Sequence record: OM135583.1
Direction: 5' to 3' (one strand)
From: Escherichia phage EP01
DNA length: 64,000 nucleotides
The notes under the pieces: model-generated
Seen by the model: the letters and a program-made list of their open reading frames with translations, nothing else
What the model was told of the DNA's origin: nothing
Database searches by the model: none
Made by a program: the position numbers and the translations under genes
In this document: in pieces, positions 31,282-35,297 of the stretch
Layout of the letters: each line of letters begins with the position of its first letter
How positions within the stretch are numbered: position 1 is the first letter of the stretch

Positions 31282-32964
31282 TTAAACCATTACAGTAAAC
31301 CGACCAACTTTCTTCATTTGAAGATGCTGACCATATTCTTGCGGGTCATGGTCTTTATGCGAAATTATAAAAACATTAGTATTTTTCATTGAATTTATAA
31401 TATTAGCTACGCCTTTAATACCTTCGGCATCAAATGACCCATCAAACACTTCATCGAGTATTAATGTACTAATACTAACACCAGATACAATAGAAGCAAT
31501 ATCACGCCAAGTAAATAAAAGAGCAATATCAATTCGTGCTTTTTCACCTTCACTAAATGAAGCATAACTAAAATCTTCACGACCACGGGATTTAATTGTC
31601 TCATTAAATTCTTCATCTAATGTAAACACATAATCCGCTTCCATTATTTTAAGATAATGGTTAATCTGCTTATTAAATAATGGAATGTACTTTTTAATAA
31701 TAGCACCTTTAATACCAGAATCTTTGAGCATATCAGTCAAAATTCCTCTGTGGTATTTTTCCATTACTAAATTAGTTTTTGTCTTAACAATTTTATCAAG
31801 TTCTTCTTGAAGCAGTGCTATTTCATCAGCATGGTCAATAAACTCAGATGATGCTTTTTCTATAGCCGCTTTAACTTTTTTAGCTTTATCTACCGTCGTG
31901 ATTAGAGATTGCTTTTTATTGCGAATATCATTTGCCAACGTCTGCTGGGTTTTAATATTATCTCGGTATTCGTCAACAAGAACTTTTAAATTATCACGAT
32001 GCGTTGAAAGCTGTTCAAATGAATGCGTACATTCAGAAACTTTATCTTTAATTTTAGAAACAACTTTATCACCAGAACTTAATTGTGACAAACAGGTTGG
32101 ACATAATCCACCTTCGTGATACATATTAATGACTTTATTATACGAGTCAATTTTTGATTTAATTAAAAATGCTTCTTGACCGATTTTATTAAATGCATCA
32201 GTCGGGTCTTCATCCAAAACAATATTAACTAATCTTTCATTAGCTTCTTCTATTTCCGATTTTAGCGTTCTAGCTTCTTTTGCCAAATCATCATACATAT
32301 TCTGCAGACGAGTAAGGTTATCACCAGTTAATTTTTTCTGGCGTTCAACGTTATCATTATATATTTTAATTTGTTGGATAATACTATCTTTTTTAACATC
32401 AAGCACTTGGTTTTGTGAATTTAATTCACGTATTAGTGCTTTATTAAGCTTATCCATTTCAGCTAATGTTCCTACCTCAAGCAGGTCTTCCACAAGCTTT
32501 CTTCGCGCAGGGGTCGACAAACCCATGAAAGGGGTATACCCTGCTGTACCAAGGACAACAATCTGCTTGAAACTGGCATATGACATTCCGATAAGCTGTT
32601 CAAATTCTGCTTGGAAATCTTTACTGCTGGCAGATTCATTAAGACGTGTACCGTTAACGGTGATTTCGAAAACGTTTGGTTTTTGTCCTCTTTTGATATA
32701 GTACTTTTTCTCATCATATTCCATCCACAGTTCAACTAAAAGTTCTTTCTTATTTGTGCTGTTTATTAATTGACCTTTCTTTACATCACGGAATGGCTTG
32801 CCAAAAAGCCCAAATGTGATGGCTTCTAACATAGTAGACTTACCACCGCCATTTCGTCCAGTAATAAGAGTTTTTTGAACCTTATCTAATTGAATGTCAA
32901 CTCCATTTTGACCAACTGACATTATATTTTTATATTTTACTCTATTAAGTTTAAATGATTTCAT
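31282..32964 (-). CDS. 46: recombination nuclease ATPase subunit (Rad50/SbcC-like), 560 aa
   Basis: Walker A GRNGGGKST, coiled-coil middle, CPTC zinc hook. Confidence 0.92.
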   Translation of the reverse strand: MKSFKLNRVKYKNIMSVGQNGVDIQLDKVQKTLITGRNGGGKSTMLEAITFGLFGKPFRDVKKGQLINSTNKKELLVELWMEYDEKKYYIKRGQKPNVFEITVNGTRLNESASSKDFQAEFEQLIGMSYASFKQIVVLGTAGYTPFMGLSTPARRKLVEDLLEVGTLAEMDKLNKALIRELNSQNQVLDVKKDSIIQQIKIYNDNVERQKKLTGDNLTRLQNMYDDLAKEARTLKSEIEEANERLVNIVLDEDPTDAFNKIGQEAFLIKSKIDSYNKVINMYHEGGLCPTCLSQLSSGDKVVSKIKDKVSECTHSFEQLSTHRDNLKVLVDEYRDNIKTQQTLANDIRNKKQSLITTVDKAKKVKAAIEKASSEFIDHADEIALLQEELDKIVKTKTNLVMEKYHRGILTDMLKDSGIKGAIIKKYIPLFNKQINHYLKIMEADYVFTLDEEFNETIKSRGREDFSYASFSEGEKARIDIALLFTWRDIASIVSGVSISTLILDEVFDGSFDAEGIKGVANIINSMKNTNVFIISHKDHDPQEYGQHLQMKKVGRFTVMV

Positions 32965-32979
32965 TTTGTATCCAATTGT

Positions 32980-33834
32980 TCACAATGAAGAAAATTCTTT
33001 AACTAAAGCCTGTAATGAAGCCTCTATTGGATATCCATTCTTAACTAACATTTTCCTAAACATCACATGTTTAGGACGATTATATGATATCCACAATTCA
33101 TACAATTTATCTTTATTATCCCAATGATAGCCTTTTCGTCTAGATGCTATATGAGCTTTTCTAATCTCCGGATTTTTCCAACTAGCAGCTACTGAATTTG
33201 ATATAGCTATTTTATATTCAGGTTTTGATAAAGCAGCACGAACAGCCTTTTGGTGTTTAATTTTATTTTCTTCGTTATTAAACCATTCCCTTGAAGCCAT
33301 TGAAATTTTTTGTTTTGTTTTAAAATTATTTAATCTTTCTTTGTTATCTTTCCTATTTTTTGCTACTGAAAAATATTTTAATGCCCTTTCTCTAGCAGCA
33401 TTTCTATTTTGCGGATTTGAATAATACTGTTGAAGCCTTTTTGATATTGTGTCACTTACATCTTGTTTTATAAAACTATATTCAGCAGCTATTAAATCAA
33501 CTTCGGCTAAAGATAAATTTTTATATGTTTTTCCTGACATCATTCTATTTAAAGCATTTAGCATTTTTCCATTTTTACCTTTTGCTAATAAGAAGTGTGC
33601 TTTAAAATGATTAAAATGACTTAAATTAACTAAATTCCATGTAGATTTTAAATATTCAGGAAATATTGATTTAGGAAGCACGTGGTGTGCTTCCGTTTTA
33701 CCTGGAGTTTTAACAGTTGAATTCATAGAAATAAAATTAATGTAAGACTTGGCGTCTTCTTCACTCAACGCTAATTTTTCAACTAATTCCTTTATTAAAA
33801 ATTCATCATTAATGTCAAGTTTAAAATTCTTCAC
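32980..33834 (-). mobile_element. HNH-type homing endonuclease gene, 284 aa, GTG start
   Basis: AHHVLPKS...NLVNLSHFNHFKAH motif and repeated basic DNA-binding modules; inserted between 46 and 47. Confidence 0.65.
33798..33834 (-). repeat. ~36-bp direct repeat copy 1, at HNH endonuclease start
   Basis: gtgaag...ttgacattaatgatgaatt on minus strand. Confidence 0.55.
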
Positions 33835-34046
33835 AAAAGATTCCTTTTAATGTATCTTTTAGACCATTCTATCATATCATCATAATCTAAAAAGTATTCA
33901 TCAAATTCAGCCATGCAAACAACACCTTGTGCTGCTTTTGATGTGATATAAATTATTCCAACATATCTAGAATCTTCTTCGGTGTAATCAATATTTGCTA
34001 TGAATTCATCGTTAATGTCAAATGTCGAAAACTTCACAGTATGCAT
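33831..34046 (-). CDS. hypothetical protein, 71 aa (start trimmed to MHTVKF)
   Basis: Stop overlaps HEG GTG start; N-terminus FSTFDINDEF mirrors the HEG N-terminus. Confidence 0.4.
   Translation of the reverse strand: MHTVKFSTFDINDEFIANIDYTEEDSRYVGIIYITSKAAQGVVCMAEFDEYFLDYDDMIEWSKRYIKRNLL
34002..34037 (-). repeat. ~36-bp direct repeat copy 2, at start of 71-aa ORF
   Basis: gtgaag...tttgacattaacgatgaattc on minus strand; roughly three quarters identical to copy 1 by eye. Confidence 0.55.
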
Positions 34047-34281
34047 CCTTAATACAAGATACAGCCATATCTTGTAATGATTTAGGTGTGTCATTATCTA
34101 AAATGTTGAAGTTAAAAGATACAGCCCAGTCAGTGCAGACCGTGACCTTTTTAATACAATTATCTTCAACCTCTAACGGTTCAAACCAATATTCAATAAT
34201 TTCTTTATGCCCAATATCATCTTTTACTTCACATTCAAAATGCTGACTCATCATAACATTTTTAAATTCATCAAAAGTCAT
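34018..34281 (-). CDS. hypothetical protein, 87 aa
   Basis: ORF track; overlaps gene 47 start. Confidence 0.5.
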   Translation of the reverse strand: MTFDEFKNVMMSQHFECEVKDDIGHKEIIEYWFEPLEVEDNCIKKVTVCTDWAVSFNFNILDNDTPKSLQDMAVSCIKDAYCEVFDI

Positions 34282-35297
34282 TGTGTTGCCTCTACATATA
34301 ACTGATTTGCATATTGAATAAGTGCTTCGCGATCAGAATCAGTGATGTCTGGAATTGCATTAATGTATTCTTCCATCAACGTCTGAAGAGATTGAACTTC
34401 AACTTCTTCGCTATCATCTGACTCGACAGAGTTATCAATCTTTGACACAACTCGTAATGAATGCACAACTTTTTCTAGTTCAGATTCGAACTTCGTCAGA
34501 TTTTTGTCTACCTCAGTTACTATAACACGTACTGATAGATTTGTAAAATCTTTATAGTCAATTTTTCCCTTAAATGGATATTGAATTCGACGATGCCAGG
34601 TAGTGTTGTTTGGAATAAATTCCATTCGTTCTGTTTCTGTATCAAACATCCAGAACCCGCGAGGGTCATTCTCGTCACCTGCAGTTAATGTCCATGGTGT
34701 CCCAATATATCTGACGTTAGCAGCCTCAGAGATAGTATGGAAGTGACCAGACCACACTTCTTTGTAAGTCTTAAGGAAATCAGGTTCAAGACCATGAGAT
34801 TTCATTCCTTTATAAAAATAGAATCCATTCAGTTCCCAGTGACCGACACAAAAAGAAGCAGATGAAGTTTTGATGTGTTCAAGAATTTCGCCAGTATTTT
34901 CTTCACACATCCAAGGAATTAAATCAATCAAACATCCGTCAAAATCTACTGTAGTAGGCTTATCATATACTTTAACATTAGGATATTTAGCCAAAAGCTC
35001 AGTAGAAGCATTTGGATGCATTACATTTTTATAGTGGAGATCGTGATTTCCTACAATAGTATGTAATGTGATTCCAGCGTCATCAAGCATTTGAACTATT
35101 TCACGTGCAAACTCCATAGTTTTATGCGTAATCGCTTTTCGCACATCAAAAATATCACCGTATTGAATCCATGTAGTAATTCCGTTTTTCTTAGAATATT
35201 CTATCGCTTGCTTAATTCCGTCAAGTTGAATACCGCGAATCCATTCATCGTCAGCTTTAACGCCTAAATGCCAATCACCTAAATTTAAAATTTTCAT
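34278..35297 (-). CDS. 47: recombination nuclease (Mre11/SbcD-like), 339 aa
   Basis: Phosphoesterase motifs DWHLG, GDIFD, GNHD. Confidence 0.93.
   Translation of the reverse strand: MKILNLGDWHLGVKADDEWIRGIQLDGIKQAIEYSKKNGITTWIQYGDIFDVRKAITHKTMEFAREIVQMLDDAGITLHTIVGNHDLHYKNVMHPNASTELLAKYPNVKVYDKPTTVDFDGCLIDLIPWMCEENTGEILEHIKTSSASFCVGHWELNGFYFYKGMKSHGLEPDFLKTYKEVWSGHFHTISEAANVRYIGTPWTLTAGDENDPRGFWMFDTETERMEFIPNNTTWHRRIQYPFKGKIDYKDFTNLSVRVIVTEVDKNLTKFESELEKVVHSLRVVSKIDNSVESDDSEEVEVQSLQTLMEEYINAIPDITDSDREALIQYANQLYVEATQ

Follow-up and report, generated by a model that had tools for sequence, protein, structure and literature searches.

A putative Mob-type HNH homing endonuclease gene at the start of gene 46 in the T4-like phage EP01

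Layout of the locus and the predicted protein

Escherichia phage EP01, a T4-like phage (Tequatrovirus), carries a putative free-standing homing endonuclease gene (HEG) of the Mob type directly ahead of the recombination gene 46, and the way in which this gene is joined to its neighbours is the subject of the present report. The window analysed is a 64-kb stretch (64,000 nucleotides) of sequence record OM135583.1, to which all coordinates refer unless another record is named. The genes of the locus lie on the minus strand in the order 47, 46.2, 46.1, HEG, 46, and the region 32700-34400 is 98.6-99.5% identical to forty listed records, including LYE-01, RB51, RB68, PP01 and EC121. Gene 47 (34278..35297), the first gene of this run, is a 339-amino-acid open reading frame (ORF) for the SbcD/Mre11-like subunit, and the same place is annotated as 47 in T4 and RB68. 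It is followed by gene 46.2 (34018..34281; Pfam T4_Y03C, PF25721, E 1e-43), which ends with a TGA at 34020-34018, and by gene 46.1 (33831..34037), assigned to DUF5487 by Pfam (PF17589, E 1.1e-48, 163.6 bits against a gathering cut-off of 27), by the T4 annotation and by its sequence. There are two candidate starts for 46.1, an ATG at 34046 (71 amino acids, used by many automated predictions) and a GTG at 34037 (68 amino acids, the T4 annotation), both of which fall within the 3' end of 46.2; the 71-amino-acid neighbouring ORF mentioned in the first-pass annotation corresponds to the former. Gene 46 (31282..32964), which encodes the SbcC/Rad50-like subunit, starts at an ATG at 32964 and has 560 codons, as in T4.

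The HEG itself (32980..33834) starts with a GTG at 33834 that overlaps the TGA stop of 46.1 (33833-33831), and it encodes a protein of 284 amino acids. The first-pass annotation had described a GTG-started ORF of this length between genes 46 and 47 that encodes an HNH-type protein. The ORF is there, its place being more exactly between 46.1 and 46, and the assignment of its product agrees with what can be said from sequence alone, namely homology to MobD, matches to PHROGs and invariant HNH residues. Using tblastn, residues 47-281 align with T4 MobD at about 30% identity (E 2e-11), and the protein matches PHROG 655 ('homing endonuclease', E 7.8e-45) and PHROG 12434 ('HNH endonuclease', E 4e-15). 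Sequence alignments place the HNH catalytic core at residues 47-80 (TEAHHVLPKS...WNLVNLS..NH..AH; 33595..33696), in which T47, H50, H51, P54, N67, H76 and H80 are invariant among the EP01 protein, four paralogues, T4 MobD and T4 MobB. RefSeq already labels the gene 'homing endonuclease' in T2, T6, RB68 and PP01.

Pfam, NCBIfam and PDB sequence searches returned no HNH match for the protein, and a word-indexed protein search found only 6 relatives. The AlphaFold models are weak, with a mean predicted local distance difference test score (pLDDT) of 59 and 68, and fold searches using them returned only noise; at the HNH motif, where Mob enzymes of this type would have a beta-beta-alpha-metal fold, the full-length model has a strand-strand-helix with a block-mean pLDDT of about 69-91. 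A Mob-type HNH enzyme is thus supported by the sequence and left undecided by the structure. Literature searches found no description of an EP01-type endonuclease or of its junction, and the gene can be counted as a new, so far uncharacterised addition to the Mob group. It is free-standing: gene 46 forms a separate ORF with a start of its own, and the region 32700-34400 gave no Rfam family at threshold, group I introns included.

Two gene 46 starts and a repeat of 46.1

In T4 there is no gene between 46.1 and 46. The T4 junction reads ...AAAAGGAATCTTTTGTGAAGAATTTTAAACTT AATAGAGTAAAATAT..., and the annotation lets gene 46 (MKNFKLNRVKY) begin at the GTG, which runs into the stop of 46.1 as GTGA. 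EP01 is the same as the T4 sequence ...AAGGAATCTTTTGTGAAGAATTTTAAACTT|AATAGAG up to the CTT, carries an additional 870 bp that appear as a gap in the pairwise alignment (32947..33816), and rejoins T4 at AATAGAG. All 18 of the first 18 nucleotides of the HEG match the first 18 of T4 gene 46, with the alignment breaking directly afterwards, and the 50 nucleotides upstream of the GTG show no differences among EP01, T4, wV7 and ESh28. The start of the HEG therefore contains the features native to T4 gene 46, including an AAGGA 7 nucleotides upstream, the GTG, the 4-nucleotide GTGA overlap with the 46.1 stop and the residues MKNFKL. In EP01 the captured translation-initiation region (33835..33846) comprises the Shine-Dalgarno sequence AAGGA (33846-33842) and a 7-nucleotide spacer, as in front of T4 gene 46, and codons 1-6 of the HEG (GTGAAGAATTTTAAACTT, MKNFKL; 33817..33834) are the displaced first six codons of a native gene 46 of T4 type. 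The identity of EP01 and T4 through GTGAAGAATTTTAAACTT indicates that the start signals of the HEG come from gene 46 and not from 46.1, and the HEG is, judging from these alignments, translated from signals that serve gene 46 in phages free of the element.

The other end of the insert holds the second half of the footprint, which the first-pass annotation had overlooked. Beyond the remainder of the HEG the insert contains a 15-nucleotide spacer and a replacement for the 5' end of gene 46, so that it ends ...TGA ACAATTGGATACAAA ATGAAATCATTTAAACTT. The spacer (ACAATTGGATACAAA; 32965..32979) provides a new, weaker Shine-Dalgarno sequence, GGA, 6 nucleotides ahead of the ATG, and the following ATGAAATCATTTAAACTT (MKSFKL; 32947..32964) re-creates codons 1-6 of gene 46. 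Flanking the insert, the two starts of this gene form a direct repeat matching at 14 of 18 positions (32947-32964 against 33817-33834), in which the 9 bp TTTAAACTT are exact. With the substitute ribosome-binding site, the ATG and the six nearly copied codons carried on the cassette, gene 46 is rebuilt at full length; the protein gp46 has 560 amino acids in both EP01 and T4, and the single change, N3S, lies in the duplicated part. The sequence ATGAAATCATTTAAA is the same as the gene 46 start of the HEG-less Mosigvirus 308Ecol101PP. The spacer ACAATTGGATACAAA is homologous to the junction between endonuclease gene and gene 46 in Salmonella phage SEA1 (GGATATTAAATG) and to the 46.1/46 junction of Mosigviruses (GAATACATATG), and the right-hand junction as a whole (GGATACAAAATGAAATCATTTAAA) likewise resembles those of SEA1 (GGATATTAAATGAAAACCTTTAAA) and of the Mosigvirus 46.1/46 boundary (GAATACATATGAAATCATTTAAA). 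This resemblance suggests that the replacement start has long been part of the cassette and was not newly duplicated.

One other origin for the arrangement was considered and rejected. A transposon with target-site duplication does not fit, since no terminal inverted repeats were found around the insert, there is no transposase, and the only ORF encodes the HNH protein. Nor is the right-hand copy of the direct repeat a fresh target-site duplicate, as it is Mosigvirus-like in sequence.

In addition to the gene 46 starts, the HEG shares a repeat with the start of 46.1. The first-pass annotation had noted that some 36 bp, or about 12 codons, recur roughly 200 bp upstream, and this repeat is real: nucleotides 1-36 of the HEG (33834-33799) match nucleotides 1-36 of 46.1 (34037-34002) at 28 of 36 positions, with the GTG codons in register and 203 bp apart. 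The upstream copy represents the first 12 codons of 46.1 (MKFSTFDINDEF; 34002..34037), and the TGA of 46.2 falls within it. When the 36-mer was compared with the 128,000 positions of the window (both strands), the 46.1 start was the top non-self match, the runner-up reaching 24/36. The pair is also the top-scoring direct repeat of the 1.4-kb region, with a score of 16 that was reached by none of 300 dinucleotide-preserving shuffles (mean 11.7, standard deviation 1.1, maximum 15). The identity is unevenly distributed, however, and is confined to the GTGAAG and a core, TTGACATTAAYGATGAATT, whereas the 10 nucleotides that separate them match at only 4 positions. The core (TTGACATTAACGATGAATT in 46.1, 34021-34003) agrees at 18 of 19 positions within EP01 and at all 19 when the T4 allele of 46.1 is used. 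Only codons 7-12 of the HEG, that is DINDEF and the 19-nucleotide core (TTGACATTAATGATGAATT, codons 6/7-12; 33800..33818), are derived from 46.1, where they copy codons 6/7-12.

Distribution, paralogues and signs of mobility

Among about 518 matching records, the HEG is present in 70 GenBank records at 98.4-100% identity, with one arrangement and the same flanks throughout; the carriers include T2, T6, RB51, RB68 and PP01. About 450 other matching Tequatrovirus records are without it, and in these gene 46 aligns only from TTTAAACTT on. Presence and absence alternate at one fixed site among near-identical genomes with the same junctions, and the HEG-less relatives are without the second copy of the repeated start. 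In the HEG-less T4, wV7 and ESh28, gene 46 is about 15% diverged, yet the GTG start overlapping 46.1 is common to all of them, which indicates that the HEG-free state is ancestral here and that the insertion is derived. Some copies are broken. RB51 and RB68 have a 1-nucleotide deletion at nucleotide 524, and the gene measures 853 nucleotides in T2, 854 in MLP2 and 862 in G2133, compared to 855 when intact; such decayed copies fit the usual picture of invasion and decay. In RB68 (L002, 1781-2634) RefSeq annotates two HEG fragments. The RB68 record also contains another annotated homing endonuclease on the plus strand (31961-32674; L002, 1-80), just downstream of gene 46 and opposite to it, while EP01 has the plain T4 order downstream of 46 (46, 45.2, rpbA, 45) without this extra gene.

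Endonucleases with 42-44% identity to the EP01 protein lie directly upstream of gene 46 in F2, pEK20 and AV113 and in SEA1. The gene order in Tequatrovirus F2 and in the Mosigviruses pEK20 and AV113 is 47, 46.2, endonuclease, 46, with 46.1 replaced, and in SEA1 (Gelderlandvirus) it is 47, endonuclease, 46. Like the EP01 protein, the F2/pEK20 and SEA1 endonucleases show nearly full-length homology, stand directly upstream of 46 and use a borrowed, overlapping start. That of F2 lies inside the end of 46.2 and is the ATG used for 46.1 in HEG-less Mosigviruses, with the first 22 nucleotides (MTKTDYE) in common before the sequences diverge, and that of SEA1 lies in an ATGA overlap with the stop of gene 47. 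The lineages differ in what has happened to the neighbours: in F2 and SEA1 gene 46 has kept its own start and 46.1 is replaced or absent, whereas in EP01 46.1 is intact and the gene 46 start is duplicated. They also differ at the 3' end, where the F2 and SEA1 ORFs extend 14 nucleotides into gene 46 and the EP01 HEG stops 15 nucleotides ahead of the new ATG. An exception is P0055, a rare 290-amino-acid variant from Logan contigs. Its T-run is one base shorter, so that it reads on to ...EFLHCEQLDTK* (equivalent to 32962-32995), and its TGA overlaps the gene 46 ATG as ATGA, the coupled arrangement of F2 and SEA1. The common 284-amino-acid form may be a derived, slightly truncated version.

Two further observations concern these paralogues. 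In SEA1 (L004, 2327-2350) the 5' end of gene 46 from codon 4 (TTTAAACTTAATAGAGTAAAATAT) is the same over 24 nucleotides as the T4 type, despite belonging to another genus, and this stretch may be a flank carried along with the endonuclease lineage. In EP01 an 8-bp perfect hairpin, GGAAGCAC-ACCAC-GTGCTTCC (33674-33694, minus strand, that is, in the sense of the mRNA), sits exactly over the catalytic His-His codons, with a folding free energy of -14 kcal/mol (z -3.8 relative to shuffled sequences). Both this nucleotide patch and its hairpin recur only in a 35%-identical paralogue at the nrdD/nrdG locus of Shigella phage ESh25 (L005) and are absent from F2, SEA1, Kha5h and T4 mobD. The hairpin could be a regulatory structure or a patch of gene conversion between paralogues.

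The paralogues bear on how the DINDEF codons came to be in the HEG. The motif F-[DNS]-[IL]-[NG]-D-[EG]-[FY] is conserved in DUF5487 proteins, divergent members included, and the F2 and SEA1 endonucleases have unrelated residues at this position. As the motif is native to DUF5487 and absent from the paralogous endonucleases, the direction of copying runs from 46.1 to the endonuclease. A reverse relationship, in which 46.1 is itself a degenerate endonuclease remnant, was rejected because the BLASTP match is confined to a short N-terminal stretch, whose residues are native to DUF5487. In both F2 and EP01 the native endonuclease sequence starts 17-18 residues ahead of a conserved Y(L/I)NFI. We consider the chances to be about evenly balanced that the composite start arose in two steps. 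An ancestral HEG in a T4-type genome would have been fused to codons 1-12 of 46.1, in the way that the F2 type is fused to a 46.1 start, and a single unequal, in-register exchange would then have taken place between the 46.1 start GTGAAGTTTTCGACATTT and the gene 46 start GTGAAGAATTTTAAACTT of an endonuclease-free genome. These two starts match at 12 of 18 positions, have TGTGAAG in common and both end in TT. The product of such an exchange would be an intact 46.1, followed by a reading frame made of gene 46 codons 1-6, 46.1 codons 7-12 and the endonuclease, and then by gene 46, and this would explain both the in-register chimera and the 203-bp spacing.

Evidence that the cassette can move comes from a mosaic Mosigvirus genome, a 45-kb Logan contig (L008). 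It contains a 1,034-bp patch that corresponds to EP01 32894-33927 with 7 mismatches (99.3% identity) and comprises the last ~97 nucleotides of 46.1, the HEG, the spacer and the first 71 nucleotides of gene 46. In 50-nucleotide windows, the contig's genes 47 and 46.2, its 46.1 over the first half and its gene 46 beyond nucleotide ~71 of that gene are 94-100% (mostly 98-100%) identical to the HEG-less Mosigvirus 308Ecol101PP, and these flanks show only ~50-90% identity to EP01. An assembly chimera is unlikely, since at the two switch points the stretches common to both parents are only about 10 and 8 nucleotides long, far below the assembler k-mer (k=31). Gene 46 of the recipient genome itself starts ATGAAATCA, and the patch has brought in the T4-type GTGAAGAATTTTAAACTT, indicating that the composite start travels as part of the cassette. 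The mosaic looks like the result of homing with short co-conversion tracts into a divergent genome, a mechanism suggested by the pattern of identity, and the transplanted segment (32894..33927) would represent the putative tract; if so, the cut site would fall within the replaced stretch. A different pattern is seen in the HEG-less Mosigvirus vB_EcoM_G2285 (L014, 701-745). When it was compared with L007, L009 and L015, its gene 46 was found to have the 5' allele ATGAAAACA...TATAAAAATATAATG, which elsewhere accompanies the F2-type endonuclease and differs from that of the HEG-less 308Ecol101PP. Either the endonuclease has been lost from this genome or the allele is a leftover co-conversion tract.

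Interpretation and relation to known systems

The arrangement is best explained, and we think probably so, by a free-standing HEG of the Mob (HNH) type that sits inside the essential recombination gene 46 after codon 6, uses the start of that gene and restores it. The HEG is likely to be co-transcribed with genes 47-46, because the interval is free of late promoters (TATAAATA) and its sigma-70-like matches do not exceed chance level. Translation would begin at the captured gene 46 initiation region and might be coupled to the termination of 46.1. RNA folds of both start regions were no more stable than shuffles, giving no evidence for a mobE-like hairpin that hides the ribosome-binding site. 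A terminator-like hairpin with a T-rich tail (ACGGTCTGCACTGACTGGGCTGT ATCTTTTAAC; 34121-34143) is present on the coding (minus) strand within 46.2, upstream of 46.1 and the HEG; it is a consensus match only. In a mixed infection the enzyme would cut or nick endonuclease-free genomes in or near the 46.1/46 junction, and recombination-dependent repair would then copy the cassette in. Carriers would be immune, their site being split and codons 1-3 recoded. This working scheme leans on what is known of T-even homing endonucleases (PMC2988022, PMC2790892).

Four other explanations have to be weighed against this one, two of which concern the start of the HEG. The first-pass annotation held that the whole 12-codon start had been copied or captured from the adjacent 46.1 at insertion. 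Its view of the repeat as an insertion footprint with a borrowed translation start stands, but the donor is 46.1 for codons 7-12 only, codons 1-6 being the gene 46 start. The 28/36 in-register identity, including the GTGAAG and the 18/19 core, is what speaks for 46.1 as the sole donor, and yet the GTGAAG is common to all three starts and so does not discriminate, nucleotides 1-18 together with the 50 upstream are 100% those of the T4 gene 46 start, and nucleotides 7-16 match 46.1 at only 4 of 10 positions. Nor does it account for the further gene 46 start with which the insert ends, and we regard it as very improbable. The same low standing is given to the possibility that DINDEF is simply the native N-terminus of the endonuclease lineage and that its likeness to 46.1 is due to chance or convergence. 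The sequence is AT-rich and coding, BLASTP of 46.1 against the HEG N-terminus yields only E 0.002, and the Kha5h paralogue starts M-D-I-N, all of which would be compatible with such an origin. Against it stand the 19/19 nucleotide match to the T4 allele at a distance of 203 bp, its rank at the top of 128,000 positions and the 0/300 shuffles, as well as the fact that the closest paralogues, F2 and SEA1, differ at this position while the motif is conserved in DUF5487.

The remaining two concern the history and the present role of the gene. Were the HEG arrangement ancestral, T4 types would have lost the gene by recombination between the TTTAAACTT repeats and nothing would have been captured. A deletion between these 9-bp (14/18) direct repeats would indeed give exactly the T4 sequence, and the frameshifted copies represent decay in some lineages; it is possible that individual HEG losses have occurred in this way. 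As a general account, however, it is very improbable, because the HEG-less T4, wV7 and ESh28, with gene 46 about 15% apart, all have the same GTG start and 46.1 overlap, because all 70 of the 70 copies show at least 98.4% identity and a single flank type, which points to recent spread, and because the cassette entered the Mosigvirus background together with a T4-type GTGAAGAAT stretch. It is also improbable that homing by the gene has ceased or never took place in this setting, and that its product is instead a nuclease that has been domesticated or serves in competition, say against co-infecting phages, the gene being retained owing to its embedding in the 47-46 operon. In favour of such a role are the intactness of most copies and the constant place of three diverged paralogue lineages beside gene 46. 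Against it, selfish homing classically leaves the marks seen here, namely a polymorphism of presence and absence, short co-transferred flanks (L008) and the occasional frameshift. A role of this kind is compatible with homing, and the two are not exclusive.

Several points weigh against the account of a mobile gene with a two-step composite start. Cleavage and homing by the enzyme are predictions, and transfer between genera rests on one metagenomic contig. GenBank phages, IMG/VR and JGI metagenomes yielded no case of the intermediate predicted by the two-step history, 46.2-[46.1 codons 1-12::HEG] with the junction TCGACATTTGACATTAAYGATGAATTTTTAATAAAGG. An exact 32-nucleotide pattern from the 5' end of the HEG had 0 matches in IMG/VR, protein-guided scans of IMG/VR and JGI metagenomes returned no relatives, and the members of the 90% cluster all start MKNFKLDINDEF, none being the intermediate; the two-step history therefore stays an inference. 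The parallel with F2 is weakened in that the stretch it has in common with 46.1 ends 8 nucleotides past the 46.2 stop, leaving the comparison suggestive. Finally, as Kha5h starts MDIN..., D-I-N might, with a small probability, belong to the endonuclease family itself.

In many respects the free-standing HEG resembles known members of its group. T4 MobD, MobB and MobE are likewise free-standing, lie in or next to a conserved gene of DNA metabolism, have a start overlapping the upstream ORF and are patchily distributed among relatives, and the EP01 protein has the same HH..N..H..H core as MobD. It differs from the T4 Mobs by an additional N-terminal extension of ~28 amino acids, common to the paralogues at the gene 46 locus, by lying inside the host coding sequence (after codon 6) and not between genes, and by having the first six codons and ribosome-binding site of the host gene while the cassette brings a replacement 5' end. 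Host genes are also known to be split by insertion of a free-standing endonuclease gene, T4 gene 39/60 with mobA being one example. In Aeromonas phage Aeh1, nrdA is split by mobE (PMC3045599). In Aeh1 nrdA/mobE and T4 39/60, as in EP01, a Mob gene is located inside an essential coding sequence and the host function is kept by a compensating arrangement. In the split-gene systems the host protein is assembled from two separately made polypeptides, whereas in EP01 six codons have been cut off, fused to the HEG and duplicated, and gp46 remains in one piece. Overlapping starts of endonuclease genes and a GTG start of mobA have been described in T4 (PMC2988022, section 13), and homing has been demonstrated for MobE (PMC2790892), compared to which the EP01 gene is known from its sequence. 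The mode of spread predicted for the EP01 HEG is that of SegF and SegG, which show intronless homing with localized marker exclusion and co-conversion of flanks (references cited in PMC2993671), and the mosaic in L008 looks like such a co-conversion tract. Both of these enzymes belong to the GIY-YIG type, and their cleavage sites have been mapped and their exclusion measured, whereas the EP01 protein is a putative HNH enzyme. The capture of the gene 46 start together with a cassette-borne replacement is thus a small variation on the known themes of overlapping starts and mobE-split genes.

A more far-reaching reading, which we consider improbable, is that the endonuclease lineage is a specialist of the 47/46 (Mre11/Rad50-like) operon that ties its own translation to the very complex that resects its breaks. 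The tie would follow from the gene 46 ribosome-binding site having been taken over and, in F2, SEA1 and the 290-amino-acid variant, from the stop overlapping the gene 46 start. In such a case the composite start would preserve the founding break point, CTT^AAT, and homing across genera would need only 8-10 nucleotides of microhomology.

The general picture of homing endonucleases is unchanged by the EP01 HEG, which is tidy more than surprising. It offers a clean example, at the level of sequence, of a selfish endonuclease that enters an essential coding region harmlessly, takes its start signals and brings along a spare 5' end. As the gene is found in the classical phages T2 and T6 and is absent from T4, it could add a locus to the map of T-even marker exclusion. 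Furthermore, if the Mosigvirus mosaic is a guide, very short stretches of homology are enough for such cassettes to pass from one genus to another, which is relevant to the mosaicism of T4-like phages.

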